From: a virus
Length of the DNA: 64,000 bases
Reading direction: 5' to 3' (one strand)
IMG/VR virus record: IMGVR_UViG_3300022225_001767
The translations under genes were made by a program, and so were the position numbers. Within the stretch, counting starts at the first letter, position 1. Every line of letters starts with the position of its first letter. The notes beneath the pieces are model-generated. The model was not told the DNA's origin. It made no database searches and saw nothing but the letters and a program-made list of their open reading frames with translations. Below, piece after piece: positions 2,856-63,323 of this stretch.

Positions 2856-3725
2856 ATGAACACAACACCGTTTCCACTCCCTAAAAAACACTCACTGCCG
2901 GAGCAACTTCTTGTGTTCCTCGCTAACGCCAAAGAGTCGATGCGCTCAGGGCAATATCTTTTCTTTACAGCTAAGCCAGAAAATCTGACGCCACGACATA
3001 TGCCACTCGCATCAACATACCTCACCCGCATCATCATTGATGCATACCTGATCAACAGAAGCGTAGACGAGATCCGCGACGCGCTTGCTTATCATCATGA
3101 AGAGTTCACTCGCGCCCTTGCGGTGTTTGATAGTGAGGGTATGCGAAACAATATGGCTTCGACGGTTAACGACGCATTCCGAGCCTTGTCTTGGGTGGCA
3201 AGCAACGCAACGCAACCAGAACAACTATATCAAGCGTATCGCTATGATATGTCTCGCAGTGATGCGCACACTACAGAAGCCTCTCTGCTTGCGCTTCACA
3301 GTGGGTTTCTCTTGTATTTTGGTTCACAAGCAAATAACGATCACCTTCTTCCGCTGGACGTTGAGCGTGATATGGCAGCATTGTGGTGGAGTTGGGATAA
3401 ACAGTGCGCTTCTGTTGGATTGCAGTACATAACACCACACATGCACCCAAATAATGCTTCTTCTGATATTTTCGGCGCTTCAACACTGACTCGTGAAGAA
3501 AGAAGCACCTCACGGTTTATGAAAATTAACCTTGCGCTATTTGTTAAATTATCAAATCAACACCGCATGACGCACAATCAACCTAGTTCGTCAGAATTAA
3601 CCTGTTTTGTTTTTCGTGAGGGACTTGAAGCTTACACCAACAATAAAACTTCAAAAGACAGTGCCGTTAACTACCTGGAAGCCGCAGAATATCCTGTTGT
3701 TTTCGCGCAACGCCAATGCGCTTGA
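2856..3725 (+). CDS. Hypothetical protein
   Basis: 289 aa ORF. Confidence 0.75.
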   Translation: MNTTPFPLPKKHSLPEQLLVFLANAKESMRSGQYLFFTAKPENLTPRHMPLASTYLTRIIIDAYLINRSVDEIRDALAYHHEEFTRALAVFDSEGMRNNMASTVNDAFRALSWVASNATQPEQLYQAYRYDMSRSDAHTTEASLLALHSGFLLYFGSQANNDHLLPLDVERDMAALWWSWDKQCASVGLQYITPHMHPNNASSDIFGASTLTREERSTSRFMKINLALFVKLSNQHRMTHNQPSSSELTCFVFREGLEAYTNNKTSKDSAVNYLEAAEYPVVFAQRQCA

Positions 3726-3768
3726 TTTACTCCGCCTCTTATGAGAAGATATAACCCGTCAACACAAC
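3722..3768 (+). promoter_or_regulatory. Repeated promoter + GTCAACACAAC leader
   Basis: TTGATT 3722, TGAGAAGAT, GTCAAC 3758. Confidence 0.75.
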
Positions 3769-3781
3769 AACGGAGAAATTC

Positions 3782-4381
3782 ATGTACCTTCTTGATCATA
3801 TCACAGTCAATGACTTTATTATCGCCAGTATGCTTGCCGATAACTCAAAAGAGGCGCAGGAAAAGCTCGCCTCCCGACTTAACAACATCTTTGGTGATGA
3901 TGTTGCGGAGGGTTTTTTCGAAGGCGAAGAGTTTAATGAGCTTGTGCAGCAGACGATATCGCTTATACCGGTTTGGTTGGAGAATGGTTCTGTCCAGAAA
4001 CAAACATGGTCTATGCAAGGCGTTTACCTTGAACCTGAGCAATCTTACGACACCGGTGTTATTGAAGTCTACCAAATGACGCAACAATCACATGACAGTG
4101 AGAAAAACAAAGGGTTTCGCTTTTCAGCATACCTTAACACGTTATTTGATGGGAACGATGAGGCGTTTGATCCTGACAACTTCAAGGTTGAGTCTGAACA
4201 ACCTGCATCAAGTGGCTTTATTGTTGTTGAGACACTCACTCAACAATTTTTCCATGTCACCAAATGTGATACCGAAGACGAAGCCGCTGCGCGTGTCATT
4301 GCGGCGTTAGGTGATGATGGGGTGGTTGTTACGAAAGAGGAACTTTGGATTTCTCCTCGACAATCCATTGTCGAGATATAA
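3782..4381 (+). CDS. Acidic hypothetical protein
   Basis: 199 aa, GGAG SD, follows the repeat promoter. Confidence 0.8.
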   Translation: MYLLDHITVNDFIIASMLADNSKEAQEKLASRLNNIFGDDVAEGFFEGEEFNELVQQTISLIPVWLENGSVQKQTWSMQGVYLEPEQSYDTGVIEVYQMTQQSHDSEKNKGFRFSAYLNTLFDGNDEAFDPDNFKVESEQPASSGFIVVETLTQQFFHVTKCDTEDEAAARVIAALGDDGVVVTKEELWISPRQSIVEI

Positions 4382-4588
4382 CGTCACAACATTACTTTCT
4401 CGTGACAAAGGGCGCTTTCACTCTGTATTTCGAGAGTCAAGGCTGCCCGCTTTGAGCGTTTTCCATACAACACAAAAATCGTTATCAATAGCGCAATAGG
4501 AGAAACCCGAGAAAGAACACTTATGGGAAAAGACAGTCAGTTCGGAAACCAGAAACCACAAAAGGTTTCAACAACTGAACACCCAAAC

Positions 4589-4635
4589 TTGACAACACAC
4601 TCACCTTTTGAGACAATGGCTATTGTCAACACAAC
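4589..4635 (+). promoter_or_regulatory. Repeated promoter + GTCAACACAAC leader
   Basis: TTGACA 4589, TGAGACAAT, GTCAAC 4625. Confidence 0.85.
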
Positions 4636-4654
4636 AAAACAAAAGGTATTCCTT

Positions 4655-5095
4655 GTGAGTAAAAGCACGCTCCCCTCTTATTTACGTGCAACTGATCGCT
4701 ATCTTATGATCACGCAAAGCACATCTGTTTCACTGCTGTATTACGCGATGATGATGGGGATCATTTACACTTCTTTTGCTGTCAGCCTATGGGCCATTTT
4801 GGGACTCTTGTTGGGGTTTGCTGTTAATGGCACTAACTATCAGCTAGGCTGTCTTTTTGATCATATAACAAACCGCAAAACGCTCAACGAAGAGCAACTT
4901 TTGCAATACGTAAACAGCCGCCCTAGCGCCATTCACATTGGTTTTACGGCCGTCGTTACAGGTTGGAGCTTACATCTTGCTCATACGGACACGTTGATGC
5001 TCGTGATTGCATTTGCAGGATTATGGGGTATACTATCACTTATTGTCTTACAGACATTTATCGACAAATCAGTGGTCTCTGACAGTGAGACCTAA
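4655..5095 (+). CDS. Membrane protein (about 4 TM helices)
   Basis: GTG start after AAGG SD, downstream of the repeat promoter; hydrophobic segments. Confidence 0.7.
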   Translation: MSKSTLPSYLRATDRYLMITQSTSVSLLYYAMMMGIIYTSFAVSLWAILGLLLGFAVNGTNYQLGCLFDHITNRKTLNEEQLLQYVNSRPSAIHIGFTAVVTGWSLHLAHTDTLMLVIAFAGLWGILSLIVLQTFIDKSVVSDSET

Positions 5096-5271
5096 CCGAA
5101 ACCTCTGACAGCAAGGTATGCTGTCTCCCTGGTTGCCTCTGTCTCTCGTGCAGGGGCTTTTTTTTATGTGAACTATGTGAACTATTATCGTGCACTGCCC
5201 AGCGCCTAAAGATCGCTGGCAATTCGATAAAACACAAATTGCATAATGTGGTAAAATGAGACTTATCGTCT

Positions 5272-5316
5272 ACAGACATGCCATCTCATTAAGGTATACT
5301 AACATCGTCAACACAA
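5272..5316 (+). promoter_or_regulatory. Repeated promoter + GTCAACACAA leader (weak -35)
   Basis: TATACT 5295, GTCAAC 5307. Confidence 0.7.
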
Positions 5317-5322
5317 AAGGAG

Positions 5323-5775
5323 ATGACGATGAAAAACACATTAGACATTCAAGCGTTATGGCGCGCCATGACATTGGCTGCAACACAACTTATTACCACC
5401 AATACATACCCTTCAAAAGATGAACCGGAAGTAAACCGACTTTCCATATTGAAAAACAAAGTGGTCTCGACCATATCTTCGATGGAAGAGAAAGAAGCGG
5501 TGCTTCACACCCTAAATGGCCTGCATGACACTTACATGCTACATTTTATGCTTGCTGGCGAACAAGTGTCGTGGAAGTGCGATACAAGCCCACTGTGGGA
5601 GCATGACGCGACGGTCGATATTGCACTTTACACCATTGATGAAGATGGCGTTCATGCATCCGCAGCGGCCATCAGGTCTCAATTGGCCGCGTTACTCACA
5701 TTATCCGACAAAGAGCTTATTGAAACAGTGCGAGTCGGAAATGACACCATTGACTCTCGCATTGCCGGAGAATAG
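5323..5775 (+). CDS. Hypothetical protein
   Basis: 150 aa, AGGAG SD. Confidence 0.75.
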   Translation: MTMKNTLDIQALWRAMTLAATQLITTNTYPSKDEPEVNRLSILKNKVVSTISSMEEKEAVLHTLNGLHDTYMLHFMLAGEQVSWKCDTSPLWEHDATVDIALYTIDEDGVHASAAAIRSQLAALLTLSDKELIETVRVGNDTIDSRIAGE

Positions 5776-6157: not shown

Positions 6158-6868
6158 TTACGCTTTTCGTCGCCTGGTCCATGCGCCTGCGCCCAGGCAC
6201 ATCAAACCTAACATAGATACGCCACCAACAGAAACATTTGTTGCTGAAGGCGAGTTAGGGTTTCTGGCATTAAGCGTAGGATCGTTGATTGAGCTTAATG
6301 TCACACCGCCATCTGACACCAAAAATACACCATATGGTGTTGATGATCTCGAATAGCCAGCCGCATTGTATTCCGTTCCATACAGTACACTATAAGCACT
6401 TGAGTTAACATAAGAACCCGCTAGCGCTACGCTATCGTTTTCATCAATATACTTCCCGAGCGTATAATTGGCGCTGCGAGATCCGTTCCCGAACAAATCA
6501 GCAAAGTCATACATTGGGTTCGTTGCTTCATTTTCTCTCACGGTGCTCTGAGTGCCATCATGCGCATAACCGCTAAAGAAAGCCGCCATCATCGTTTCCA
6601 CTTCGCTGTTTAGCGCAAAGCGCCACCCTGTAAACGCATTCGGCGTATCGCTCGCCAACAGGCTTTCAATTTGATTGATGGAGTAGTTGCGTGTTTCTGT
6701 CAAATCAAGCCACTCTATCCCTGTTGCTCTATGTAGCGTTGCTTTGGCATCGCCTGCTACAGCAACATCCGTCGTCATAAATTCATCGCCGGAATTTGAT
6801 ATAAAGGTTTCGGCATTGACCGCGCCTGACGCTAAAAACATTGCCGCAAGTAACAATTTGTATCGCAT
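6158..6868 (-). CDS. Exported protein with PEP-CTERM-like sorting tail
   Basis: Signal peptide; C-terminal NVSVGG + TM helix + RRRKA; paralogous to 16333 and 18344 (shared TGIEWLDLTET, FLVSDGG). Confidence 0.8.
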   Translation of the reverse strand: MRYKLLLAAMFLASGAVNAETFISNSGDEFMTTDVAVAGDAKATLHRATGIEWLDLTETRNYSINQIESLLASDTPNAFTGWRFALNSEVETMMAAFFSGYAHDGTQSTVRENEATNPMYDFADLFGNGSRSANYTLGKYIDENDSVALAGSYVNSSAYSVLYGTEYNAAGYSRSSTPYGVFLVSDGGVTLSSINDPTLNARNPNSPSATNVSVGGVSMLGLMCLGAGAWTRRRKA

Positions 6869-8236: not shown

Positions 8237-8282
8237 TTGACAATATAACGAACTTTTGAGACAATAAAAGCGTCAACACAAC
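8237..8282 (+). promoter_or_regulatory. Repeated promoter + GTCAACACAAC leader
   Basis: TTGACA 8237, TGAGACAAT, GTCAAC 8272. Confidence 0.85.
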
Positions 8283-8294
8283 TGAGGAAACTCC

Positions 8295-8549
8295 ATGAAT
8301 TTACATATTCACACTTTGACCACGGCTGTTATCAGCGATTTGAGTGCTAAGCAAAAAGACGAACTGTCCAAAGCGCTAGGTTATCCGTTTACAACCACTA
8401 ATGACAATGGTTACATGGTCATTGATATGGAAGAGCTTAACAACATGCTGAGTGACGACCCTGATTTTGATGATGGTAAGTTCATCAAAGGAATGCTTAT
8501 CAGCTGGGATCTTGATCTTGAAGACGTCGATCGCGTTGAAATCATTTAA
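8295..8549 (+). CDS. Small acidic protein
   Basis: 84 aa, D/E-rich, GAGG SD. Confidence 0.75.
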   Translation: MNLHIHTLTTAVISDLSAKQKDELSKALGYPFTTTNDNGYMVIDMEELNNMLSDDPDFDDGKFIKGMLISWDLDLEDVDRVEII

Positions 8550-10949: not shown

Positions 10950-10994
10950 TTGACATATCACCGGGTTGTTGAGATAATGACCATGTCAACACAC
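10950..10994 (+). promoter_or_regulatory. Repeated promoter + GTCAACACA leader
   Basis: TTGACA 10950, TGAGATAAT, GTCAAC 10985. Confidence 0.85.
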
Positions 10995-11006
10995 AGGAGA
11001 TAAACC

Positions 11007-11501
11007 ATGCGAAACCTTATTCAAAAAACCTCAGCACTACTTGTTGCCGCAGTTAGCGTAGTCACACTTAGCGGTTGTGAGTCAACACCTAAGAACGACA
11101 ATGTGCGCGTGTTTTATACAGATGCCACGATTATCTCATTAGAGACAGCCACTCGTTGCAGCGGAAACGGGAATAGCAATGGCCCGTCACTTTTGGCTAT
11201 TATCGGTGGCGCAGCGCTGGGTGCTCACTTTGGCGGCAGCGACAGGGCAAAAGCGGGATTTGCGCTTCTTGGTGGTGCAGCAGGTGGGGCTATCTCTTCA
11301 GGTGCAAGCTCACGTGAACCTTATGGTCGCCAGCGCTGCAATGACAACTTTTATATAGCCAAGGTCAGCTTTATCGATCCTCTTACTATGCGCAAAGAAA
11401 TTTCAACGGTCAAACTGTCCAGTCGACCTTATTCAAAGCATTTGGAAAATGTAAAGATTGTTGCACCCAAGCTACCATTGAGCAACACACCAGTAAGGTA
11501 A
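11007..11501 (+). CDS. Lipoprotein with glycine-zipper 2TM motif
   Basis: Lipobox LSGC; IIGGAALGAHFGG…LLGGAAGG. Confidence 0.75.
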   Translation: MRNLIQKTSALLVAAVSVVTLSGCESTPKNDNVRVFYTDATIISLETATRCSGNGNSNGPSLLAIIGGAALGAHFGGSDRAKAGFALLGGAAGGAISSGASSREPYGRQRCNDNFYIAKVSFIDPLTMRKEISTVKLSSRPYSKHLENVKIVAPKLPLSNTPVR

Positions 11502-11612: not shown

Positions 11613-12113
11613 GTGAAAGACTTCTTACAGCTATATTCGCCTGATGAGCATCGCAATGTGTTTGACAAGCGCGTTTTTTTGTTGACATTTCATCTCATTG
11701 CTGAGATAATGAAATCTGTCAACACAACAAGAGTAAGCGTTATGCCAACAAGAGAAAAAGCACTTCTGTCTGTTCAAGCCACTCACCCTATCCATAGCGA
11801 TATCACGCATGTTGATATTGTGGTTGATTATTTCGAGGGACAGTACCGCATGGTGCTTCAACCTAAAAACAAGCGAGATGGTTTAGATAGCACTATTATC
11901 GTTGTTGGGAAAAACAGCGTTGGTACAAAAATCGTGCTTCGCCGAGTTTCTCGTTATTCATCAAAAACGCTTGAGAACATCTACCCTTCTGCATCTAACT
12001 GGCACACAATCTATGATGCTGTTTTTGCGCAAGGTTTCATTCTTGACGATGAGGCCAAAGAGGCACTGCAATGTGAGGTTGAATTGGCGGAAGAAGCGCG
12101 CTCTCAGCTGTAG
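11613..12113 (+). CDS. Hypothetical protein
   Basis: 166 aa ORF. Confidence 0.65.
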   Translation: MKDFLQLYSPDEHRNVFDKRVFLLTFHLIAEIMKSVNTTRVSVMPTREKALLSVQATHPIHSDITHVDIVVDYFEGQYRMVLQPKNKRDGLDSTIIVVGKNSVGTKIVLRRVSRYSSKTLENIYPSASNWHTIYDAVFAQGFILDDEAKEALQCEVELAEEARSQL

Positions 12114-12147: not shown

Positions 12148-12192
12148 TTGACAACGCCCACAGCGCATGAGATGATATCACCGTCAACACAA
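12148..12192 (+). promoter_or_regulatory. Repeated promoter + GTCAACACAA leader
   Basis: TTGACA 12148, TGAGATGAT, GTCAAC 12183. Confidence 0.85.
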
Positions 12193-12206
12193 AAGCGAAC
12201 TTTAAT

Positions 12207-14635: not shown

Positions 14636-14681
14636 TTGACAACGTTCTCACATAGTGAGATACTGGTCTTCGTCAACACAA
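14636..14681 (+). promoter_or_regulatory. Repeated promoter + GTCAACACAA leader
   Basis: TTGACA 14636, TGAGATACT, GTCAAC 14672. Confidence 0.85.
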
Positions 14682-14698
14682 TTACAGGAAACAACACC

Positions 14699-17118: not shown

Positions 17119-17164
17119 TTGCGAATCATTGTGAATAATGAGATAATTTACAGGTCAACACAAC
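17119..17164 (+). promoter_or_regulatory. Repeated promoter + GTCAACACAAC leader
   Basis: TTGCGA 17119, TGAGATAAT, GTCAAC 17154. Confidence 0.8.
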
Positions 17165-17177
17165 ACGGAAACGAAAC

Positions 17178-17534: not shown

Positions 17535-17548
17535 ATTCCGCGTCACAC

Positions 17549-17592
17549 TTGACTACAAACACAGCTTTTGAGATAATAGTTTTGTCAACACA
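17549..17592 (+). promoter_or_regulatory. Repeated promoter + GTCAACACA leader
   Basis: TTGACT 17549, TGAGATAAT, GTCAAC 17584. Confidence 0.85.
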
Positions 17593-17606
17593 GTACGGAG
17601 AATATC

Positions 17607-18037: not shown

Positions 18038-18072
18038 TTGACAGGATCTAAATGTTGTGAGAGGATACACAT
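18038..18072 (+). promoter_or_regulatory. Promoter of the candidate sRNA
   Basis: A-tract UP element, TTGACA 18038, 17-bp spacer ending TGA, GAGGAT; the +1 region reads GTCGAA rather than GTCAAC. Confidence 0.6.
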
Positions 18073-18329
18073 GTCGAAAGGGAGAACACAGGTTCAAACC
18101 TGACGACAATGCTAACAACGCCTTGAGATTACTCGGCCTGTTAGCCGCGGGGGCACTAAGAACGTCAACACTTAATGCCTATATAACCGCCCAGTTTATT
18201 TGCCTGGCACCTGTTGTGTTGACGCCCTCTTGGTGCTAGGCCCCCCTTCGCTGCACGCTCTGTTGTGTTGACGCCTTCTCAGCGTGCAGCCCCTAAACAA
18301 AAAAAAGCGCCTTTGTGGCGCTTTTTTTG
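18073..18329 (+). ncRNA. Candidate trans-acting sRNA, antisense to the GUCAACACAACAG mRNA leaders
   Basis: No credible ORF. Hairpins 18203-18240 and 18250-18290 each present (C)TGTTGTGTTGACGCC in the loop; own promoter and terminator. Confidence 0.7.
18299..18329. terminator. Bidirectional intrinsic terminator
   Basis: AAAAAAAGCGCC-TTTGT-GGCGCTTTTTTT. Confidence 0.85.
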
Positions 18330-18343
18330 TATCTGTAGATAGC

Positions 18344-19112: not shown

Positions 19113-19158
19113 TTGACAAAGCACACAGCCTCAGGCATGATGTTACCTGTCAACACAA
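19113..19158 (+). promoter_or_regulatory. Repeated promoter + GTCAACACAA leader
   Basis: TTGACA 19113, CATGAT, GTCAAC 19149. Confidence 0.8.
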
Positions 19159-19170
19159 ACGGAGAAACAC

Positions 19171-25424: not shown

Positions 25425-25970
25425 ATGATGCATTGCCCACCTATTCTTGGCTTCCTTTCGGTGGCCCACTTTCGAGATGAAACAAAAAAGCTGTCAGAAC
25501 ATCTCAACATCCCCTTAAACAAACTGAGAAAGAAAATTGCCAATCGACACGGTTTCAAAGGCATTGAACCCTACGAGGCTCAACTTTCGCTTTTCGAAGC
25601 GCAGGATGTTGACGCCATACCGCCTTATCGTATTGGCGGAGGGAAAATTGTATACCTGATCTGCTATGAAACGCTAAGACACACATCATCAGGTTACGTA
25701 TGGAATGAGAACAAGAAAGGCATTATGGCCGAGTTAAGCTCCATGATGAACTTCAATCACAACAACGTACACCGTGATAACATTCAACTCCTCATCACTC
25801 GTGTCGAGGTGCCATGGGATATGGATCATGACGAGATTACAGACACGTTGTCTAATTTTGAGGAGCGCATTATGTTGGAGCATAAGGGATTTCGTTACCC
25901 GCTGACTCAGAAGGGGTTTAAAGACAGTGTCGCTGCTGTTAACGCGGACAATGATGATGAAATTGATTGA
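25425..25970 (+). CDS. Protein with Glyoxalase_8-like N-terminal helical motif
   Basis: PLNKLRKKIANRHGFKGIEPYEAQL; GGAG SD. Confidence 0.6.
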   Translation: MMHCPPILGFLSVAHFRDETKKLSEHLNIPLNKLRKKIANRHGFKGIEPYEAQLSLFEAQDVDAIPPYRIGGGKIVYLICYETLRHTSSGYVWNENKKGIMAELSSMMNFNHNNVHRDNIQLLITRVEVPWDMDHDEITDTLSNFEERIMLEHKGFRYPLTQKGFKDSVAAVNADNDDEID

Positions 25971-26012
25971 CAATACTCACAGTGTTTGTAATACTGTCCC
26001 TGTCAACACAAC
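25967..26012 (+). promoter_or_regulatory. Repeated promoter + GTCAACACAAC leader
   Basis: TTGACA 25967, TGTAATACT, GTCAAC 26002. Confidence 0.85.
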
Positions 26013-26028
26013 TCGGAGTAATATTACC

Positions 26029-26864: not shown

Positions 26865-26910
26865 TTGACAACGCCCTCACTTATTGAGATACTAATCCTG
26901 TCAACACAAC
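26865..26910 (+). promoter_or_regulatory. Repeated promoter + GTCAACACAAC leader
   Basis: TTGACA 26865, TGAGATACT, GTCAAC 26900. Confidence 0.9.
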
Positions 26911-26924
26911 AACGAGAAAAAACA

Positions 26925-30177: not shown

Positions 30178-30227
30178 TTGACTCATTTTATTAAACCTAG
30201 TAATATTAAGTCTATATTGTCAACACA
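30178..30227 (+). promoter_or_regulatory. Repeated promoter + GTCAACACA leader (longer spacing)
   Basis: TTGACT 30178, TAATAT 30201, GTCAAC 30219. Confidence 0.65.
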
Positions 30228-30239
30228 GCGAACATTGTT

Positions 30240-32637: not shown

Positions 32638-32681
32638 TTGACAATAAACACAGTTCTTGAGAGAATAACCTTGTCAACACA
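32638..32681 (+). promoter_or_regulatory. Repeated promoter + GTCAACACA leader
   Basis: TTGACA 32638, TGAGAGAAT, GTCAAC 32673. Confidence 0.85.
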
Positions 32682-32697
32682 CTCTTTGGAGATCCTT

Positions 32698-33085: not shown

Positions 33086-33129
33086 TTGACGGTGAGTGCT
33101 TTTGCTGCGAGAATGGGTACGTCAACACA
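33086..33129 (+). promoter_or_regulatory. Repeated promoter + GTCAACACA leader
   Basis: TTGACG 33086, TGCGAGAAT, GTCAAC 33121. Confidence 0.8.
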
Positions 33130-33150
33130 GCAACAGGAACCATTCTGTCA

Positions 33151-33818: not shown

Positions 33819-33864
33819 TTGACTTGAACACTTACTTTTGAGATAATTAACATGTCAACACAAC
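33819..33864 (+). promoter_or_regulatory. Repeated promoter + GTCAACACAAC leader
   Basis: TTGACT 33819, TGAGATAAT, GTCAAC 33854. Confidence 0.85.
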
Positions 33865-33872
33865 GAGGAAAT

Positions 33873-34382: not shown

Positions 34383-34429
34383 TTGACAACCTACTCAAGT
34401 TTTGAGATACTTATTCCTGTCAACACAAC
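34383..34429 (+). promoter_or_regulatory. Repeated promoter + GTCAACACAAC leader
   Basis: TTGACA 34383, TGAGATACT, GTCAAC 34419. Confidence 0.9.
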
Positions 34430-34442
34430 ACAGGAAAATGTT

Positions 34443-34652: not shown

Positions 34653-34696
34653 TTGACAAGAGGCCATCTCATTGAGATAATGCCATCGTCAACACA
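34653..34696 (+). promoter_or_regulatory. Repeated promoter + GTCAACACA leader
   Basis: TTGACA 34653, TGAGATAAT, GTCAAC 34688. Confidence 0.85.
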
Positions 34697-34838
34697 CGTA
34701 CATGTCGCACACTTTAGGCAACCGTAGATCATTATTCTACAACTTGCCACGCAAACAATCACTACGCTCATGCTGCGATAACTCGATTATACGTCGGGAT
34801 AAAGCTTGAGCTGAACAACGTATTTATTGGAGTCTATT

Positions 34839-35793: not shown

Positions 35794-35838
35794 TTGCTTT
35801 TTGAGTCCATTTTTGGCATACTTAATTATGTCAACACA
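35794..35838 (+). promoter_or_regulatory. Repeated promoter + GTCAACACA leader
   Basis: TTGCTT 35794, TGGCATACT, GTCAAC 35830. Confidence 0.8.
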
Positions 35839-35850
35839 CAAGGAAAAACC

Positions 35851-38733: not shown

Positions 38734-38779
38734 TTGACTTCATACACAGACTTTGAGATACTAGCTCCGTCAACACAAC
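38734..38779 (+). promoter_or_regulatory. Repeated promoter + GTCAACACAAC leader
   Basis: TTGACT 38734, TGAGATACT, GTCAAC 38769. Confidence 0.9.
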
Positions 38780-38793
38780 TAACGGAGTCATCC

Positions 38794-40869: not shown

Positions 40870-40948
40870 ATTTTTGGTTATTTTCAATAAATGTATATTT
40901 TTTCTGATGGATATTGACATCACTCACAGGCGGTGAGATAATCACCAT

Positions 40949-41826: not shown

Positions 41827-42417
41827 ATGAGCAGCATACTGCTTCATGAGAACAACCAAAGATTAGTGTATGACGATGCCACCTTAACGTGGGTGGCACC
41901 GCAAACCCAATACCCACTCATTAACCCTCATTCTCAGCTTCCGGCCATCCCTAGCCCCCGGCATAAGCATGAGATTGTGGGCACATTAACAATTCGGGTT
42001 TATGATACACGCTCACGTAAAGTAGAGCTTTTCCCCTTGGCATTGCGCCAGGGGGTAATACATACGCCAAAACGTTGCTATGTCGGTGCAAGCTTAACGC
42101 TTGACGCTGTCAATAAGATGGGAATGTGGCTAAAATCCTGCGGAATTAACCATGAGTGGTCGCATCGCTATGTGACAAACATCATCCAAGCACTCAATCA
42201 CGGCGATGTGCTATGTGGCGAAATTGAAGCCATCTACCGCAAAAAGAAACCCAATCCATCTGGAAAGCTTTATTTTGACCGCGCCGCCTACGAGTCTCGC
42301 CCGACCATTTTGACGTGGGGGGTTAACGTTGACCCACCACGCCAACGCGCATGCTCACCCTTGTTGACGTTGGCGGTAAACAACAGTAAAACCATTGACA
42401 ACGCTCACACCTTGTGA
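41827..42417 (+). CDS. Hypothetical protein
   Basis: ATG after GAGG SD. Confidence 0.65.
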   Translation: MSSILLHENNQRLVYDDATLTWVAPQTQYPLINPHSQLPAIPSPRHKHEIVGTLTIRVYDTRSRKVELFPLALRQGVIHTPKRCYVGASLTLDAVNKMGMWLKSCGINHEWSHRYVTNIIQALNHGDVLCGEIEAIYRKKKPNPSGKLYFDRAAYESRPTILTWGVNVDPPRQRACSPLLTLAVNNSKTIDNAHTL

Positions 42418-42440
42418 GACACTGACATTGTCAACACAAC
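42395..42440 (+). promoter_or_regulatory. Repeated promoter + GTCAACACAAC leader
   Basis: TTGACA 42395, TGAGACACT, GTCAAC 42430. Confidence 0.85.
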
Positions 42441-42456
42441 GGTTAGAGAACCCATT

Positions 42457-43417: not shown

Positions 43418-43461
43418 TTGACTTTGCACACAGCATGTGAGACACTAATATTGTCAACACA
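43418..43461 (+). promoter_or_regulatory. Repeated promoter + GTCAACACA leader
   Basis: TTGACT 43418, TGAGACACT, GTCAAC 43453. Confidence 0.85.
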
Positions 43462-43474
43462 TCAGGGAAAATCA

Positions 43475-45180: not shown

Positions 45181-45226
45181 TTGACAACATACACTGTTTT
45201 TGAGATACTAATTCTGCCAACACAAC
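45181..45226 (+). promoter_or_regulatory. Repeated promoter + variant GCCAACACAAC leader (ssb)
   Basis: TTGACA 45181, TGAGATACT, GCCAAC 45216. Confidence 0.85.
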
Positions 45227-45246
45227 AGATAACAAAGGAAACATTT

Positions 45247-48114: not shown

Positions 48115-48162
48115 TTGACAACCATCGCAGATTTTGAGATACTGATCCTGTCAACACAACAG
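48115..48162 (+). promoter_or_regulatory. Repeated promoter + GTCAACACAACAG leader
   Basis: TTGACA 48115, TGAGATACT, GTCAAC 48150. Confidence 0.9.
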
Positions 48163-49426: not shown

Positions 49427-49471
49427 TTGACAAAAAACACAGGCTGTGCGAACCTGTTTTAGTCAACACAA
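49427..49471 (+). promoter_or_regulatory. Repeated promoter + GTCAACACAA leader
   Basis: TTGACA 49427, weak -10, GTCAAC 49462. Confidence 0.75.
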
Positions 49472-49483
49472 ATGGAGCGCATT

Positions 49484-50745: not shown

Positions 50746-50781
50746 GTTGACTTTCATGTTCAATACTGCCAAAATGAAAAT

Positions 50782-51899: not shown

Positions 51900-51946
51900 T
51901 TGACTACCTACACTGCCTGTGAGACAATGGCTATTGTCAACACAAC
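51900..51946 (+). promoter_or_regulatory. Repeated promoter + GTCAACACAAC leader
   Basis: TTGACT 51900, TGAGACAAT, GTCAAC 51936. Confidence 0.85.
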
Positions 51947-51960
51947 GTAGGTAATCATTT

Positions 51961-54445: not shown

Positions 54446-54493
54446 TTGCATTTAGCCTCTCTTTTTGAGACAATAAAAACGTCAACACAACAG
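54446..54493 (+). promoter_or_regulatory. Repeated promoter + GTCAACACAACAG leader
   Basis: TTGCAT 54446, TGAGACAAT, GTCAAC 54481. Confidence 0.85.
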
Positions 54494-55706: not shown

Positions 55707-55752
55707 TTGACATCACTCACAGAATTTGAGACACTGACATTGTCAACACAAC
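55707..55752 (+). promoter_or_regulatory. Repeated promoter + GTCAACACAAC leader
   Basis: TTGACA 55707, TGAGACACT, GTCAAC 55742. Confidence 0.9.
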
Positions 55753-55763
55753 AAGGAATACAC

Positions 55764-56189
55764 ATGCTTTCACATACCCCTATTTATAAAAACGACGACA
55801 AGCAAGCCGTACTTGGTTATGAGCTGTCATTTGCGCTACGCGTTGGTAACGTCAGCCTTAATGTGCTGTATGAAGAAGACGAAGATGGCTCCGCGTCAAT
55901 TGTCGTCAAAAGCGCCTACAAGCCACTGAACTTGACCGTTGATGTTGTTTTTGAAGATAAGCCAACACCCACCATCCAAAAAAATGACGACGAGCAAACA
56001 GCGACCGTTAATTTCCACGATTGCAGTGTTGTAGCAAGTTGGAAAAGGTTGCCTTCATGCACTGACGGCAACGGCTTTATTCAAGTTGAAATTGTTGAGA
56101 CCGACATTGATGGCTCTAAGGCTGTCCTCGCTGAAGCAGGATTAAGCGGTTTAGGTATTTTGCAACTTGATGGGGTGCGCCTGCTATGA
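55764..56189 (+). CDS. Hypothetical protein
   Basis: ATG after AAGGA SD. Confidence 0.75.
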   Translation: MLSHTPIYKNDDKQAVLGYELSFALRVGNVSLNVLYEEDEDGSASIVVKSAYKPLNLTVDVVFEDKPTPTIQKNDDEQTATVNFHDCSVVASWKRLPSCTDGNGFIQVEIVETDIDGSKAVLAEAGLSGLGILQLDGVRLL

Positions 56190-56865: not shown

Positions 56866-56911
56866 TTGACAACGCCCACATGTTTTGAGATACTTGATTT
56901 GTCAACACAAC
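56866..56911 (+). promoter_or_regulatory. Repeated promoter + GTCAACACAAC leader
   Basis: TTGACA 56866, TGAGATACT, GTCAAC 56901. Confidence 0.9.
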
Positions 56912-56925
56912 ATGGAGCGGCACTC

Positions 56926-57522
56926 ATGCCAACATTTACTATTTACCAAGAAACCGATGCACTGAACCCACGCGAAGCTGAGAACAAAGGCCGAATGCTG
57001 TGCAAACATCGTCGCTATATATTAGGCGATGTTGATGCTTCTGGTGATCTTTCAGATATGATTTCTGGGCATCCTGATTTTGATTCAGTATCTGCCGACT
57101 TTGACCGCCAAGATCCTGCATCATTGTTTCGACTGGCTCAAGGTTTAGGCATTATTGCCGTCTACTTGGAACTGCATCTTTACGACCACTCTGGCATCAC
57201 CATGTCAACGATCCCGTTCTCATGCGCTTTTGATAGCGGACAGGTCGGAGTCATTTACATGACGCACAGCGACATGGACACCTATTATGGCGGCACTGAA
57301 GCTCACCACTGCAACCAAGCTAAAGAACACATGAAAGCCGAGGTTAAAGCGTACGACGCCTTTATTTCGGAAGACACTTTCGGCTTTCTTCTGGTCGATG
57401 ATGACGGCACGATGATTTGCGAACGTTCTGGCTATGAAGGCTGTGACATCGAGTCTAATGGTATGCTCAATGACATTGATGCGCAATATCACGAGTTAGT
57501 GCGCAAGTCCGTAAACGCCTAG
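56926..57522 (+). CDS. Mobile-element-type hypothetical protein (LYDHSG…FSC.FDSGQVG motif)
   Basis: Motif I recall from uncharacterised phage/plasmid proteins; GGAG SD. Confidence 0.7.
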   Translation: MPTFTIYQETDALNPREAENKGRMLCKHRRYILGDVDASGDLSDMISGHPDFDSVSADFDRQDPASLFRLAQGLGIIAVYLELHLYDHSGITMSTIPFSCAFDSGQVGVIYMTHSDMDTYYGGTEAHHCNQAKEHMKAEVKAYDAFISEDTFGFLLVDDDGTMICERSGYEGCDIESNGMLNDIDAQYHELVRKSVNA

Positions 57523-58005: not shown

Positions 58006-58040
58006 ATTGACATTTTAATCAATACTGGTATTATTAACAC

Positions 58041-58238
58041 AAGTTTCGAGAGCGTTACGACGCTATGACCGAAATGTGTGTTGCAGCACACGCCGCCTAC
58101 CGCCCTTTGGGTGTTTGTTTTATACAGACCGGCCACTCTTGCACCATTGAATGCACACTTACGTTTATAATCGTTTACCGCGTGAGGCTTCAAGGTTAAT
58201 TGGTAGGGCTTGAACATTCACATTCGGAGAACGCTATT
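58041..58238 (+). ncRNA. Structured 5' leader H (pseudoknot-like family)
   Basis: Promoter TTGACA 58007 / TATTAT 58029. CCTACC 58096 pairs with GGTAGG 58202, in the loop of GTGA..TTCAAG / CTTGAA..TCAC. Confidence 0.55.
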
Positions 58239-58889: not shown

Positions 58890-58936
58890 TTGACACAGGC
58901 TGTGTTTGTTGTTAATATAATAACCGTCAACACAAC
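58890..58936 (+). promoter_or_regulatory. Repeated promoter + GTCAACACAAC leader
   Basis: TTGACA 58890, TGTTAATAT, GTCAAC 58926. Confidence 0.85.
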
Positions 58937-58951
58937 AACAGGAATGCACAC

Positions 58952-59194
58952 ATGAAAGTATCTCGTTTACTTGAACTCAACGAAGACCGTCGCATGAAAA
59001 AGGCGAAAACGGAAGACTTGCACGGTACGGTAACGGTCTCTGATACGCTCGCTTGCTTGGACACCTATACGTTCATCAGACAAAAAGAAGAAGGCTTCTA
59101 CTTGCTGAACGTTGACCCCCTCAGCGAAGAAATCACCAGCATTCTGGTTAAATCAGAGTTCCTCAGTGCAGACGTGCTGGCTATCTTTAAATAG
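58952..59194 (+). CDS. Small hypothetical protein
   Basis: 80 aa, AGGA SD. Confidence 0.7.
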   Translation: MKVSRLLELNEDRRMKKAKTEDLHGTVTVSDTLACLDTYTFIRQKEEGFYLLNVDPLSEEITSILVKSEFLSADVLAIFK

Positions 59195-60332: not shown

Positions 60333-60380
60333 TTGCACTTTGTCAAATTTATTGATATATTTAAACTGTCAACACAACAG
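60333..60380 (+). promoter_or_regulatory. Repeated promoter + GTCAACACAACAG leader
   Basis: TTGCAC 60333, TGATATATT, GTCAAC 60368. Confidence 0.8.
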
Positions 60381-60389: not shown

Positions 60390-60587
60390 ATGCACCTTAG
60401 TCAACTTATCGACAACGCTTGCGAGGCTGTAACCAACATTAACCTTACGCTGCAAAAAAGCAAGATGGCGCTCATGTCAGATGCCTCATTCACACAAGAG
60501 CAAAAGCAAGCCATTTTAACAATGCTGGAGCCAACTGAAAGCGCAATATCACAAGCTACTCAAAGCTTCGTCATTTCGGAAGAGTAA
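60390..60587 (+). CDS. Small hypothetical protein
   Basis: ATG after AGGAG SD. Confidence 0.7.
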   Translation: MHLSQLIDNACEAVTNINLTLQKSKMALMSDASFTQEQKQAILTMLEPTESAISQATQSFVISEE

Positions 60588-60624: not shown

Positions 60625-60672
60625 TTGACAACGCTCTCTGACTTTGAGACGCTGACATGGTCAACACAACAG
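60625..60672 (+). promoter_or_regulatory. Repeated promoter + GTCAACACAACAG leader
   Basis: TTGACA 60625, TGAGACGCT, GTCAAC 60660. Confidence 0.85.
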
Positions 60673-60681: not shown

Positions 60682-60918
60682 ATGACGCTTAATGACTTTG
60701 TCTTATCTCGCCAACGAGCAATAAGCGCTAATTTTGCATTACGTAATCGCGCTCCCTACTCCCGACAACGCAATCCTGAAAGGGTGCTTCAATGGCGTGC
60801 GCAGCAGCGTGCTACAATACGCCGTTTCATCCAGGAAGTCAGGCTTTCGGAAAACAAAGATACCGCTCATATCATGAGTAAGGCCGTCGCCAACTTGGTG
60901 ACACCTAAGTTTAACTAA
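60682..60918 (+). CDS. Small basic hypothetical protein
   Basis: ATG after AGGAG SD. Confidence 0.7.
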   Translation: MTLNDFVLSRQRAISANFALRNRAPYSRQRNPERVLQWRAQQRATIRRFIQEVRLSENKDTAHIMSKAVANLVTPKFN

Positions 60919-60942: not shown

Positions 60943-60990
60943 TTGACAACACTCTCAGTTTTTGAGATACTAATCCTGTCAACACAACAG
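60943..60990 (+). promoter_or_regulatory. Repeated promoter + GTCAACACAACAG leader (consensus-like copy)
   Basis: TTGACA-ACACTCTCAGTTTTTGA-GATACT-AATCCT-GTCAACACAACAGGAG. Confidence 0.9.
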
Positions 60991-60999: not shown

Positions 61000-61269
61000 A
61001 TGGCTTTATCTGAACAAGCAATGATCAGCAAAATCAATAAGGCGCTACCAGAAGCGAACGCCGTACCTATGGCTGAATTTTACGGCGACCCGTCACGTAA
61101 AGGCATCTGGCTACGAGGCAGCGAAGAGTTTGCATCAGATGGTTTACCTATCTTTAACGCAGGCACTATCGAGGACGCTCTGCACCCTACACTACAAGCT
61201 ATCGTCGATGACAATGGCTGGTACGGCGAACCCTATGACGGTGGCACGCTAATGCTATACAAGGTGTAG
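61000..61269 (+). CDS. Small hypothetical protein
   Basis: ATG after AGGAG SD. Confidence 0.75.
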   Translation: MALSEQAMISKINKALPEANAVPMAEFYGDPSRKGIWLRGSEEFASDGLPIFNAGTIEDALHPTLQAIVDDNGWYGEPYDGGTLMLYKV

Positions 61270-61821: not shown

Positions 61822-61848
61822 TTTTTCTGGATGTTCTTCACGCGATTA

Positions 61849-61896
61849 TTGACAAAAAACACAGCTTTTGCAATACTCGCTCTGTCAGCACAACAG
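61849..61896 (+). promoter_or_regulatory. Repeated promoter + variant GTCAGCACAACAG leader
   Basis: TTGACA 61849, TGCAATACT, GTCAGC 61884. Confidence 0.8.
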
Positions 61897-61906
61897 AGGA
61901 AATATT

Positions 61907-62191
61907 ATGGTCTTACGCAACATCCCAACGGTCTACATATCCGTACTTGAAAATGGCACTTTCAATATGGTCGACCGTCATGTAAATTTTCGTGTAGGCG
62001 ACGAGGGGCAACTTTTTTGTTCAGACATCGACGCCATCAGCTACGATTGCGAAGTCAGAGGCTATCAGTGGATTGCCCCTGCACTTGAACAATGGGCAAA
62101 GAAGCAAAAGGGCTACTGGGAATGGGAGAATGCGGAAACTATTGTTTTCGTACACGAAAGTGATCAGGTTCGTTTTCGAGCCCCACAATAA
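61907..62191 (+). CDS. Hypothetical protein
   Basis: ATG after GAGG SD. Confidence 0.7.
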   Translation: MVLRNIPTVYISVLENGTFNMVDRHVNFRVGDEGQLFCSDIDAISYDCEVRGYQWIAPALEQWAKKQKGYWEWENAETIVFVHESDQVRFRAPQ

Positions 62192-62241
62192 ACAATGAGG
62201 GGGGCACCCCTTATTCAATCTATGCAAAATAAGGTTTATCT

Positions 62242-62613
62242 ATGAACAACGCATCACAACCACAGGGCGACACCCTTTATCTTAGCCGACAGATTGCCGC
62301 ACGCCTCACCGATTTCGTCAAGGCAACCAAATCGCCCATTATTATCACCAACCCGTGGTTGGCTCAGGCGCTGTTTATGCTAAAGCGAACATTGCCGCTT
62401 CGTTATGATAACGCGCCATATGCTGATTTAGAGTACTTGTTTACGCAATACCCTGGCTTCTCTATTGCATTTGTTAACGAAAACATTGCAATTGGATGGG
62501 AAGGTTGCAACGACAACCCCTTAATACCCATTGACCTTGCGACGTTAGGTAATATGCTTTGCCCTACATCACGGGCGACGCTGCGAAGCATCATTGATTT
62601 GGATGAACAATAA
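62242..62613 (+). CDS. Hypothetical protein
   Basis: 123 aa ORF. Confidence 0.7.
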   Translation: MNNASQPQGDTLYLSRQIAARLTDFVKATKSPIIITNPWLAQALFMLKRTLPLRYDNAPYADLEYLFTQYPGFSIAFVNENIAIGWEGCNDNPLIPIDLATLGNMLCPTSRATLRSIIDLDEQ

Positions 62614-62963
62614 TGTCACGACTATCATCTAAAGCGATAAACGCCTTTCTCAGCGAGAACTTTGGAGGTGAACTCTCTGCTAATGTGGCCGCCAGCACGA
62701 CATCTGAACTCGTTCAGATCATGACGGATGCAGGCATCCCACCCGGCGAACCCGAAAATGACAGCGTGCTTTTAAGCGATATTCGCGATGTCATCGTTGA
62801 GCTTGCGGCAGTATACGAGTGTTTGCTTAACACGACGAACACGGGCGCGCCACTGGCAATTGACATCCCCTCAATAGAGACACCATTAGGGCAGCGTATC
62901 AACGACATCTTACCTCGCCCAGGTGAAACCCCTAACATCAACGATAACAAAGGCAGAGATTAA
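62613..62963 (+). CDS. Hypothetical protein
   Basis: TAATG overlap. Confidence 0.7.
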   Translation: MSRLSSKAINAFLSENFGGELSANVAASTTSELVQIMTDAGIPPGEPENDSVLLSDIRDVIVELAAVYECLLNTTNTGAPLAIDIPSIETPLGQRINDILPRPGETPNINDNKGRD

Positions 62964-62964
62964 C

Positions 62965-63243
62965 ATGGGCCCTTACGACAACGAGACCGGCAAGTACCTC
63001 TTTGACAATGATATTATGTCAGCACACTGGCTTTACCATGATGACAGTGAATCACTGTATATTATCGGGCGTGATGAGCACGGCTTTGAAGGCTATGGCA
63101 ATGATGATGACATCGAGGCGGCGCTTTTTGCGCTTACTGACAGCGAGTTAGACAATGACGCGCTCATGGAAAGCAAAGGCTTTACGCTTGTGCCAGACCC
63201 GCTACGCCGCTTTGGTGTGAATGAAGGTTATTACGCGGCATAA
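62965..63243 (+). CDS. Small acidic protein
   Basis: 92 aa, D/E-rich. Confidence 0.7.
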   Translation: MGPYDNETGKYLFDNDIMSAHWLYHDDSESLYIIGRDEHGFEGYGNDDDIEAALFALTDSELDNDALMESKGFTLVPDPLRRFGVNEGYYAA

Positions 63244-63275
63244 CGTTGCAAGAGGCGGCCTTTTGCCTAATTTAC

Positions 63276-63323
63276 TTGACAACGCTCACACCATTTGAGA
63301 TACTTGTCTTGTCAACACAACAG
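63276..63323 (+). promoter_or_regulatory. Repeated promoter + GTCAACACAACAG leader
   Basis: TTGACA 63276, TGAGATACT, GTCAAC 63311. Confidence 0.9.

Follow-up and report, generated by a model that had tools for sequence, protein, structure and literature searches.

Tagged Promoter Modules of a Marine Mobile Element

The stretch of DNA analyzed here in its entirety (64 kb; the window) belongs to an uncultured marine mobile element, in which ~90% of the proteins have no known function. Its + strand carries 36 copies of a promoter-plus-leader module, TTGACA-N17-(TG)nGAYAMT-N6/7-GTCAACACAAC-SD-ATG, and all of them are co-oriented. The first-pass annotation, made from the sequence letters, counted about 35 such copies; the module is present at each of the 35 coordinates given there, and one more was found at 11718. 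The copies, with the position of the invariant G of their leader (hereinafter, the tag) and the gene that follows, are listed below together with one untagged promoter.

3722..3770, +, module with a TTGATT −35, TGAGAAGAT; tag G 3758; gene 3782–4381
4589..4637, +, module; tag G 4625; gene 4655–5095
5273..5319, +, module with a poor −35, 16-nt spacer, TATACT; tag G 5307; gene 5329–5775
8237..8284, +, module; tag G 8272; gene 8295–8549
10950..10997, +, module; tag G 10985; gene 11007–11501
11682..11730, +, module absent from the earlier list; tag G 11718; gene 11742–12113
12148..12195, +, module; tag G 12183; gene 12207–12617, weak SD
14636..14684, +, module; tag G 14672; gene 14699–15322
17119..17166, +, module; tag G 17154; gene 17178–17534 (NTP_transf_2)
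17549..17596, +, module; tag G 17584; gene 17607–17999
19113..19161, +, module; tag G 19149; gene 19171–20016
25967..26014, +, module; tag G 26002; gene 26029–26403
26865..26912, +, module; tag G 26900; gene 26925–27212
30178..30231, +, atypical copy, TTGACT-N17-TAATAT, 12 nt, tag G 30219; gene 30240–31262; not a full module by the profile HMM
32638..32685, +, module; tag G 32673; gene 32698–33051
33086..33133, +, module; tag G 33121; gene 33151–33795
33819..33866, +, module; tag G 33854; gene 33873–34355
34383..34431, +, module; tag G 34419; gene 34443–34646
34653..34700, +, module; tag G 34688; then a ~140-nt leader, no nearby ORF
35794..35842, +, module with a weak −35 (TTGCTT); tag G 35830; gene 35851–36486
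38734..38781, +, module; tag G 38769; gene 38794–39474
40914..40942, +, untagged promoter of the same flavor, TTGACA..CTCACAG..TGAGATAAT; ~190-nt structured leader; gene 41145–41825
42395..42442, +, module; tag G 42430; gene 42457–43092
43418..43465, +, module; tag G 43453; gene 43475–43783
45181..45228, +, module with the variant tag GCCAACACAAC, kept in relative L093; ssb 45247–45831
48115..48162, +, module; tag G 48150; gene 48172–48579
49427..49474, +, module; tag G 49462; gene 49484–49810
51900..51948, +, module; tag G 51936; gene 51961–52677 (deaminase-like)
54446..54493, +, module; tag G 54481; gene 54504–55004
55707..55754, +, module; tag G 55742; gene 55764–56189
56866..56913, +, module; tag G 56901; gene 56926–57522
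58890..58938, +, module without TGn, 18-nt spacer; tag G 58926; gene 58952–59194
60333..60380, +, module; tag G 60368; gene 60390–60587
60625..60672, +, module; tag G 60660; gene 60682–60918
60943..60990, +, module with the top profile score; tag G 60978; gene 61000–61269
61849..61896, +, module with the variant tag GTCAGCACAAC; tag G 61884; gene 61907–62191
63276..63323, +, module; tag G 63311; gene 63333–63554

The spacer is 17 nt long in 34 of the 36 modules, TGn directly precedes the −10 in 32, and the tag G lies at the canonical +1 position, 6 nt past the −10 hexamer at 27 sites and 7 nt past it at eight; hence the −35 starts 35–36 nt ahead of the tag G, as stated in the first-pass annotation. 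Site 5307 has a poor −35, and at site 30219 the promoter is atypical, with 12 nt between TAATAT and the G. The start codon follows the tag G by 19–31 nt in 33 of 36 modules, and the 5′ UTRs are uniformly short. The promoters are best read, in line with the initial description, as near-consensus sigma70-type ones with an extended −10, i.e., as ordinary duplex promoters and not Frpo-like hairpins. Certain spacer bases (C at −24 and −22, G at −12) are conserved across the modules as well. Since promoters without a tag occur in the window as well (18038, 39916, 40914, 50747, 58007), the tag appears to be an added address which the promoter itself does not need.

The exact 9-mer GTCAACACA occurs 34 times on the + strand and three times on the − strand (the chance expectation for any 9-mer in 64 kb is, arithmetically, ~0.24 per strand); with one mismatch allowed, 68 matches were recorded vs. 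20.6 ± 5.1 in shuffles. All exact + strand copies reside within modules and none within genes, and only two of the 36 tags are variants (GCCAACACA at 45216, upstream of ssb, and GTCAGCACA at 61884). On the + strand, 35 of the modules were recovered by a profile HMM derived from them; its − strand matches were limited to two loops of a small RNA described below. As noted initially, the shared leader heads unrelated small genes including ssb: the tagged genes are mutually unrelated, and ~90% of them lack a Pfam family. At least 36 transcription units of the window probably share a strong promoter and an identical 11-base mRNA start.

Element Specificity and Conservation of the Module

The module is a feature of the element, not of its host. 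Above the chance level, it was not found in 401 Alteromonadaceae genomes, an Alteromonas megaplasmid, GTDB representatives, or IMG/VR, and it recurs in marine metagenome contigs from Tara and JGI. The pattern TTGAC-N29-31-GTCARCACA occurs no more than twice in any of the 401 family genomes, the same as for the control; TTGAC-N15-TGAGAYAMT, found 21 times on the + strand of the window and never on its − strand, is absent from 121 genomes. According to the first-pass annotation, a motif equally common on the host chromosome or on the two strands would speak against a regulon; neither was seen.

Among contigs with ~90% identity, mismatches number 0/143 in the tag and 13/468 (2.8%) in the promoter and amount to 2.9% in the SD region, whereas third codon positions differ at 18.8% and the remaining intergenic DNA at 9.1%; in relatives with 71–85% identity, the tag differs at 3/77 positions vs. 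21% overall. These figures point clearly to purifying selection on both tag and promoter. The copies share only ~47 bp, of which 9–13 bases are identical, and possess random upstream flanks and diverged spacers; hence they are not recent duplicates, and their sameness is likely maintained by selection. Nine tag bases do not vary in 34 of the 36 copies or in orthologues.

A Predicted Small RNA Complementary to the Tag

The window also harbors a predicted small RNA unit comprising the following features:

18038..18331, +, anti-tag small RNA unit; promoter resembling that of the modules but untagged (TTGACA at 18038, TGAGAGGAT); ~258-nt RNA; terminator 18299–18329
18164..18172, +, tag mimic GTCAACACT internal to the RNA; base-paired, in the MFE fold, to the first anti-tag
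18202..18241, +, hairpin 1; loop holds CTGTTGTGTTGACGCC; anti-tag 18211–18223
18250..18290, +, hairpin 2; a different stem with the same 16-nt loop; anti-tag 18260–18272

The unit is free of ORFs, has its own predicted promoter and terminator, and is the only one of its kind in the window, vs. 36 strong promoters. Its predicted fold is stable (−100 kcal/mol, z −6.1). Both hairpin loops contain the exact complement of tag positions +1 to +13, and the only exact + strand copies of CTGTTGTGTTGAC in the window are those at 18211 and 18260. Between the two hairpins, all eight base pairs are kept, five of them changed on both sides, and the 16-nt loop is identical; no homologues of the small RNA were recovered from other contigs, so this compensatory evidence comes from two paralogous hairpins of one sequence. 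Predicted loop–tag duplexes range from −14 to −27 kcal/mol across all 36 leaders, and in the full-length MFE fold the internal tag mimic occupies the first anti-tag. The conservation of the tag and its complementarity to the loops both end exactly at +1.

The Tag as a Probable Address for RNA Pairing

The presence of an anti-tag RNA in the same window, a link to the module that the first-pass annotation did not draw, suggests a likely function for the shared leader. We consider it somewhat better than even (a probability of about 0.55) that the tag is a common address for this element-encoded small RNA acting on all tagged mRNAs. Each module would be fired by the host sigma70-type RNA polymerase, recognizing TTGACA, the 17-nt spacer, and the extended −10 TGnGAYAMT, with transcription most likely initiated at the invariant G. 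At least 36 mRNAs would then open with 5′-GUCAACACAAC, directly followed by the SD, with the start codon ~23 nt from the 5′ end. The tag (11–13 nt, ACA-rich) is predicted to be single-stranded (unpaired with a probability of 0.78 vs. 0.55 for random 13-mers in the same context, p = 7e-12) and probably aids ribosome loading; ACA motifs just 5′ of the SD are described as proven translation enhancers silenced by a GU-rich sRNA (PMC3879156). The small RNA, if made, would display CUGUUGUGUUGAC, the exact complement of +1 to +13, in its two loops, and the pairing, reaching the edge of the SD, would cause a translation block or decay of all tagged mRNAs. Pairing could equally activate, stabilize, or titrate.

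The same 11–13 bp could, though it is unlikely, operate as DNA: an element-encoded repressor may bind the asymmetric +1 to +11 box as a monomer, in the manner of the mycobacteriophage L5 or Cluster A repressor at its operators and stoperators, and would, by occupying the start site, turn off all 36 promoters together, the co-orientation reflecting the geometry of protein and polymerase. Dozens of asymmetric 11–13 bp copies oriented with transcription match the description of L5-type sites (PMC9283540), and +1 to +11 is a classic repressor position. The extra conserved spacer bases, which the small-RNA model does not explain, may reflect contacts of a protein with the promoter and thus a further DNA-binding factor. 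However, no HTH, RHH, or other DNA-binding families were found by Pfam among the 112 ORFs of the window, and all copies keep a fixed distance from a promoter, with none at an intergenic “stoperator” position. A duplex-DNA site would have no need of the compensatory changes in the stems around the two reversed copies, and the termination of both complementarity and conservation exactly at +1 argues against it as well.

Slightly less probable still is a role of the tag solely in cis, as an optimized initial transcribed sequence and unstructured ACA-rich leader that maximizes promoter escape and mRNA stability as well as ribosome loading; a trans regulator would be lacking, and the hairpins would have another role. 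The predicted unpaired state of the tag and the short 5′ UTRs suit this explanation; ACA motifs alone are described as enhancing translation (PMC3879156), and plasmid leading regions are reported as adapted for translational efficiency (PMC13478746). Still, enhancers are described as tolerant of variation in sequence and position (PMC3879156), whereas the tag is nearly invariant, and the two exact 13-nt complements in hairpin loops would be left unexplained.

It is improbable that the tag is a site which an RNA-binding protein binds or a ribonuclease cleaves, with the anti-tag RNA being a decoy or antagonist and not the primary regulator. Phage T4 RegA and RegB, which act on early mRNAs, are analogues; an invariant, 5′-terminal, predicted single-stranded site would fit, and the factor could hide among the function-unknown proteins of the element. 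However, no candidate protein was identified, and as the anti-tag RNA is complementary to the tag instead of repeating it, decoy action would be limited to the single internal mimic at 18164.

The first-pass annotation also suggested that gene cassettes could be shuffled by recombination at the repeats, a role put forward for the CUP repeats of IncN plasmids. This is very improbable: the modules do flank unrelated genes, but the three indels or breakpoints vs. 86–91%-identical contigs (a small sample of events) fall either within genes or 36 nt ahead of a −35 and never at a module, the relatives L080, L086, and L092 are collinear, and only 9–13 bases within ~47 bp are identical amid random flanks, which is short for homologous recombination.

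Parallels in Known Systems

The anti-tag RNA partially resembles GcvB, where one G/U-rich RNA is described as acting on many mRNAs via an ACA-rich, unstructured target just upstream of the SD that also enhances translation (PMC3879156). GcvB targets are, by the same account, degenerate, variably placed, and chromosomal (PMC3879156), in contrast to the invariant 9–13-mer at the extreme mRNA 5′ end, behind one promoter type, of a mobile element. For the anti-tag RNA, neither a relation to GcvB (by sequence or Rfam) nor an Rfam C4 match at the gathering threshold was found. The c4 RNA of P1/P7 is likewise a mobile-element antisense RNA with complementary sequences in loops, blocking translation near the ribosome-binding site in an immunity/establishment switch (PMC12197685), a mode of action that may hold for the window RNA too; c4 controls one operon (ant), compared with at least 36 predicted targets here. 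In the Cuckoo/CcsR RNAs of Alphaproteobacteria, two hairpins share one conserved loop motif that can pair with the ribosome-binding region of mRNAs, a generic anti-SD (CCUCCUCCC) directed at those of the host (PMC8034643). The loops described here complement a private 5′ tag and not the SD, in another taxon and context.

CUP repeats are longer than the modules and are under a protein repressor. In IncN pKM101/R46, such promoter-bearing repeats are described as preceding several unrelated small leading-region genes, forming a regulon (PMC3490853), and as proposed recombination sites (Delver and Belogurov 1997, cited in PMC3490853). CUP copies are few, unlike the 36 short modules with an invariant transcribed tag, an antisense RNA, and no recombination seen at the copies. 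The operators/stoperators of Cluster A phages comprise >20 asymmetric 13-mers oriented with transcription and mediating genome-wide silencing by one regulator, but they are protein-bound DNA sites, many of them intergenic and away from promoters (PMC9283540, PMC6550527). In the window, all copies lie at promoter +1, and an RNA complement is present. SAS motifs of Cluster K mycobacteriophages adjoin the start codon, and no promoter accompanies them, whereas the window motif is locked to the presumed transcription start. Like the tag, SAS are short and conserved and directly precede the start codons of numerous unrelated genes within one mobile element (PMC3203893). Frpo-driven leading-region anti-defence islands also combine many small co-oriented genes, including ssb and mostly unknown ones, expressed as a set, from long single-strand hairpin promoters (PMC11541004), in contrast to the plain duplex ones here. 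Typical leading regions are far shorter than the tagged block, and no oriT, relaxase, psiB, ardA, klcA, methyltransferase, or phage hallmark genes were found within the window.

Overall, the idea of a regulon put forward in the first-pass annotation is supported, whereas the establishment or early-gene role attached to it there is hypothetical. RNA pairing is the probable means of joint control of the tagged genes, most of which have no known function, since they share the mRNA start and the loops of the predicted small RNA are exactly complementary to it. These genes would be on as long as little or no small RNA is present, e.g., just after entry into a new cell, and would be damped as it accumulates.

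Architecture and Distribution of the Module

All 35 sites named in the first-pass annotation proved, once their flanks were printed, to carry one architecture, and an additional site at 11718 had been overlooked there. The resulting 36 copies of the module (the repeated promoter and leader unit) consist of TTGACA, a 17-nt spacer with a TGA end, GAYAMT, 6–7 nt, GTCAACACAAC, a Shine–Dalgarno sequence (SD) and a start codon. The spacer is 17 nt long in 34/36 copies, TGn stands directly 5' of the -10 hexamer in 32/36, and a start codon with an SD before it follows 19–31 nt after an invariant G in 33/36. The -10 hexamer precedes this G, which opens the tag (the 11–13-nt beginning shared by the mRNAs), by 6 nt in 27 copies and by 7 nt in 8; by this geometry the G is the canonical +1, i.e., the predicted start site. 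Certain copies deserve separate mention (all on the + strand, coordinates of the tag G):

5307, copy with a poor -35
30219, copy with atypical spacing
34688–34826, tagged promoter followed by ~140 nt without a nearby start codon or SD, which may represent a long leader or a non-coding RNA that carries the tag
45216, tag variant GCCAACACAAC, before ssb
61884, tag variant GTCAGCACAAC

In the 64-kb window, exact matches to the 9-mer GTCAACACA number 34 on the + strand and three on the - strand; a search tolerating one mismatch gives 68, compared with 20.6 ± 5.1 after dinucleotide-preserving shuffling. Trained on the module copies, a profile HMM recovers 35 on the + strand along with two promoter-only matches (18036 and 40912), its only matches on the - strand being two short ones (18209–18223 and 18259–18272). 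No exact tag copy away from a promoter was revealed anywhere in the window by either the exact-match scan or the profile HMM. All 36 asymmetric copies are on the + strand, the only reversed ones being the two located within a putative small RNA (see below).

Conservation and Selection

When the copies are anchored on the tag, positions +1 to +9 are invariant and +10/+11 (AC) almost invariant, with a sharp drop of conservation at -1. Pairwise identity among the copies is 41% over the 14 variable spacer positions, 35% over the discriminator and no different from random over the 12 nt located 5' of the -35. A mobile repeat or a recent duplication of the modules was rejected on the grounds of this divergence of spacers, discriminators and upstream flanks.

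Mismatch rates were derived from four marine metagenome contigs, 86–91% identical to parts of the window. Within codons, third positions mismatch in 18.8% of cases, exceeding first (7.8%) and second (5.1%) positions, which argues that the small ORFs are real genes. The rate is 9.1% in other intergenic DNA, 2.8% (13/468) in the promoter from -36 to -1, 2.9% in the SD region and 0/143 in the tag. In three more distant relatives (contigs L080, L086 and L092, 71–85% identity), the tag accumulated 3/77 mismatches vs. 21% overall, and the modules stand before genes absent from the window. Judging from these substitution patterns, purifying selection acts on the module and most strongly on the tag. 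The initial proposal of a large regulon is supported; the 36 modules are co-oriented, element-specific and situated before unrelated genes.

A further proposal, that the repeats serve as recombination points, is not supported. The three breakpoints relative to related contigs (window 43665–44518, 46095–48079 and 55188) are located within genes or 36 nt 5' of a -35, the sequence common to the module copies is short, and the other relatives are collinear. For this idea, the CUP regulon described on IncN plasmids (PMC3490853) offers the nearest precedent.

Promoter Type

The promoter part corresponds to the sigma70 type with an extended -10, as proposed initially, with regard to the -35, the spacer, TGn and the A-11/T-7 pair alike. 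In the 30 aligned copies, TTGAC is present in 28–30, A-11 and T-7 in all 30; perfect TTGACA is found in 22/36. The logo anchored on the -10, TTGACAA..(C-24)n(C-22)A...TTTGAGAYAMT, includes a G at -12 (27/30), unlike the consensus T. The conserved C-24, C-22 and G-12 are not explained by the RNA polymerase consensus and may reflect a second, DNA-level control.

The window also harbors strong untagged promoters with long structured leaders:

18038 (+), promoter of the putative small RNA
39916–40149, untagged strong promoter and leader
40914–41144, untagged strong promoter and leader
50747–50965, untagged strong promoter and leader
58007–58199, untagged strong promoter and leader

The latter four, followed by G+C-rich, apparently structured leaders of ~190–230 nt and by genes of ~220–270 aa each, form another, separate type of transcription unit of the element; among them, only 40914 has the spacer and -10 flavour of the module. 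Since strong promoters lacking the tag exist in the window, the tag can be regarded as an optional address and not as a part of the promoter. A comparison of L080 (~3430–3462) with L092 (~20–55) revealed, in one of these relatives, a module short of four bases (TGAG) of the extended -10 with its tag and gene intact; it looks like a naturally crippled copy.

Several DNA-level structures were considered and rejected. A single-strand promoter of the Frpo/ssi type is not apparent: DNA folds of 12 module regions contain no hairpin pairing the -35 with the -10, the significant folds being upstream terminators. A discriminator–SD hairpin with the tag in its loop, whether formed in RNA or in DNA, was dismissed, because matched and mismatched pairs behaved alike (permutation p = 0.26). 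The -35 TTGAC and the tag GTCAA are inverted repeats; a global dyad symmetry was rejected, since TTGAC/GTCAA and the spacer repeat CTCA/TGAG have different centres, and the extension further upstream lacks conservation. On inspection of the sequence, TGTCAA, taken as the -35 of a promoter running antisense on the - strand, lacks a correctly spaced -10. A role as a polar DNA motif, like Chi or KOPS, is at odds with the lack of copies outside promoters.

Element Specificity and Host

Neither Megablast with 20 kb as query against PLSDB and INPHARED nor tblastn with two large proteins against the plasmid collection returned a match, and scans of GTDB representative genomes and IMG/VR for the module pattern gave single chance matches only. 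A scan of metagenome contigs retrieved eight marine contigs with 2–8 co-oriented module copies each.

The N-terminal 109 residues encoded by the ssb of the element are identical (109/109) to those of ssb from the Alteromonas mediterranea megaplasmid pAMCP48-600. Between the SSB-encoding segments (45247–45573 in the window and 20001–20327 in L001, the comparison sequence carrying the megaplasmid ssb), third codon positions are 41% identical and nucleotides 77% overall. By this codon pattern, the identity of the SSB core appears to be a matter of extreme protein-level constraint or of convergence on the host SSB core, not of recent transfer. Together with the G+C content of the window (45%), the ssb match points to an Alteromonas-like host.

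In pAMCP48-600, the tag 9-mer occurs at background frequency only. The pattern TTGAC-N29-31-GTCARCACA was found at most twice per genome, not above the reversed control, in 401 genomes from the family of a Pseudoalteromonas MAG. The promoter-only pattern TTGAC-N15-TGAGAYAMT, with 21 matches on the + strand and none on the - strand of the window, gave none in 121 host-family genomes, where its reversed control appeared 17 times. A host-type promoter or host motif was hence rejected, the module patterns being at control level or absent in host-family genomes. The module is equally frequent neither on the host chromosome nor on both strands, so the finding of the module stands.

The Putative Anti-Tag Small RNA

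The complement of positions +1 to +13, CTGTTGTGTTGAC, has exact + strand copies at two places only, both within a 290-bp unit without a credible ORF:

18038–18331 (+), putative anti-tag small RNA
18038 (+), TTGACA of its module-like, untagged promoter, TGAGAGGAT
18164–18172, tag near-copy GTCAACACT
18211 and 18260 (+), the two copies of CTGTTGTGTTGAC
18299–18329, strong terminator

The predicted fold of this RNA (-100 kcal/mol, z = -6.1) displays each tag complement in the loop of its own hairpin; the two stems differ, and the 16-nt loop is identical. On comparison of the hairpins, 8/8 aligned pairs are kept, five of them by two-sided changes, and slid controls pair in 12–44%. This preservation of stem pairs by compensatory changes around an identical loop points to a structure formed by a single-stranded nucleic acid, i.e., by RNA. 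Predicted loop:leader duplexes range from -14 to -27 kcal/mol across all 36 leaders. The predicted unpaired probability of the tag in the first 70 nt of the mRNAs is 0.78 vs. 0.55 for random 13-mers (p = 7e-12). Both complementarity and conservation extend from +1 to about +12 or +13, adjoining the SD. The near-copy of the tag pairs with the first anti-tag loop in the minimum-energy fold; under this model, the small RNA could switch between self-masked and active forms. The Rfam families C4, GcvB and ar14 gave no match at the gathering score, nor did any other Rfam family in the whole window.

Proposed Function of the Tag

ACA motifs directly 5' of the SD have been established experimentally as translation enhancers, silenced by the GU-rich sRNA GcvB, as reported in PMC3879156. 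The tag holds two or three such motifs. The most economical reading is that the shared 5' tag would promote translation and serve as the address of the putative anti-tag small RNA. A bolder reading is an RNA address system, in which anti-tag hairpin RNAs of one family would recognize an invariant 5'-terminal tag on ~36 mRNAs of the window and act as an establishment/immunity switch, with a second dialect represented by GUCAGCAC/GTCAGCAC; the probability of this proposal is estimated at about 0.4, i.e., somewhat below even odds.

A rival explanation of the tag is a DNA operator at +1 to +11 bound by a repressor that recognizes an asymmetric site as a monomer, as described for Cluster A mycobacteriophages (PMC9283540), where the repeated asymmetric site is likewise oriented with transcription and present in dozens of copies. 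This explanation fits the orientation and copy number of the tag, but Pfam revealed no such regulator in the window, every copy is kept at a fixed distance from a promoter with no promoterless intergenic sites of the stoperator type, and the display of the tag complement in hairpins is left unexplained. Recognition of the tag by a protein or an RNase is another rival. A purely cis-acting leader would explain neither the invariance of the tag nor its complements.

A literature search met the tag sequence in no relevant paper. The closest described systems include GcvB and its ACA targets, c4 of P1/P7 (PMC12197685), the two-hairpin Cuckoo/CcsR RNAs (PMC8034643), CUP regulons, stoperators and start-associated sequences (PMC3203893); in none of them does a fixed promoter occur together with a 5'-terminal tag that is invariant across dozens of mRNAs and with an antisense RNA to match.

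Genes of the Element

Only about ten of the 112 ORFs in the window have any Pfam family:

SSB
NinI-like phosphatase
trypsin-like protease
small nucleotidyltransferase
deaminase-like protein
GNAT
lipase-like hydrolase
SspB and GmrSD_N (weak matches)

Among these ORFs, Pfam detected no family of DNA-binding regulators, and Pfam, PHROGs and NCBIfam no plasmid or phage hallmark gene. For the functions of the tagged proteins, these three resources yielded almost nothing, and the leads from ESM Atlas were at chance level only. The tagged genes are mutually non-paralogous. Paralogous families of the window are confined to the - strand:

6158–6868, 16333–17052 and 18344–19021 (-), three paralogues of ~230 aa, 31–37% identity
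13842–14570 and 28238–29029 (-), two paralogues of ~250 aa, 27% identity

None of these five has a Pfam match or a tag. The gene at 18344–19021 is convergent with the putative small RNA, a bidirectional terminator being common to both. The tagged pair at 17178–17999, encoding a 118-aa minimal nucleotidyltransferase (NTP_transf_2) and a 130-aa protein without a Pfam match, each from its own tagged promoter, resembles by analogy an MNT-HEPN-like toxin–antitoxin system.

A 666-aa protein has counterparts in four clusters only among 5.8 billion proteins, all of them metagenomic. Its N-terminal segment recurs at the window start (within 1–2250; 78% identity over 55 aa) and twice in the related contig L077 (1068–3450; ~70% nucleotide identity), which suggests that a domain is repeated, or that paralogues stand in tandem, upstream of the window.

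An establishment or early role of the regulon, put forward in the first-pass annotation, is plausible. The sole usual leading-region gene in the window is ssb: psiB, ardA/klcA and orphan methyltransferases were not detected by Pfam or NCBIfam among the 112 ORFs, and no oriT or relaxase was found within the window. The module promoters also differ from the Frpo promoters of described leading regions (PMC11541004).

Biological Significance

The tag would afford a sequence-only listing of the co-regulated genes of the element, ~90% of them without a known family; functions in establishment, anti-defence or host manipulation may well be sought among these genes. The promoter/tag/anti-tag triplet would constitute a compact, orthogonal part for expression control, testable in Alteromonas or E. 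coli. If the proposed address system is true, one small RNA family switches dozens of unrelated genes via a private tag starting each mRNA, a design simpler and more sweeping than any described bacterial sRNA regulon, and the element controlled in this way is giant, abundant, uncultured and marine. The second tag dialect (GUCAGCAC) would then allow two gene sets to be addressed independently, or related elements to show heteroimmunity, and an RNA-based switch would govern a large block of mostly family-less, possibly anti-host genes.
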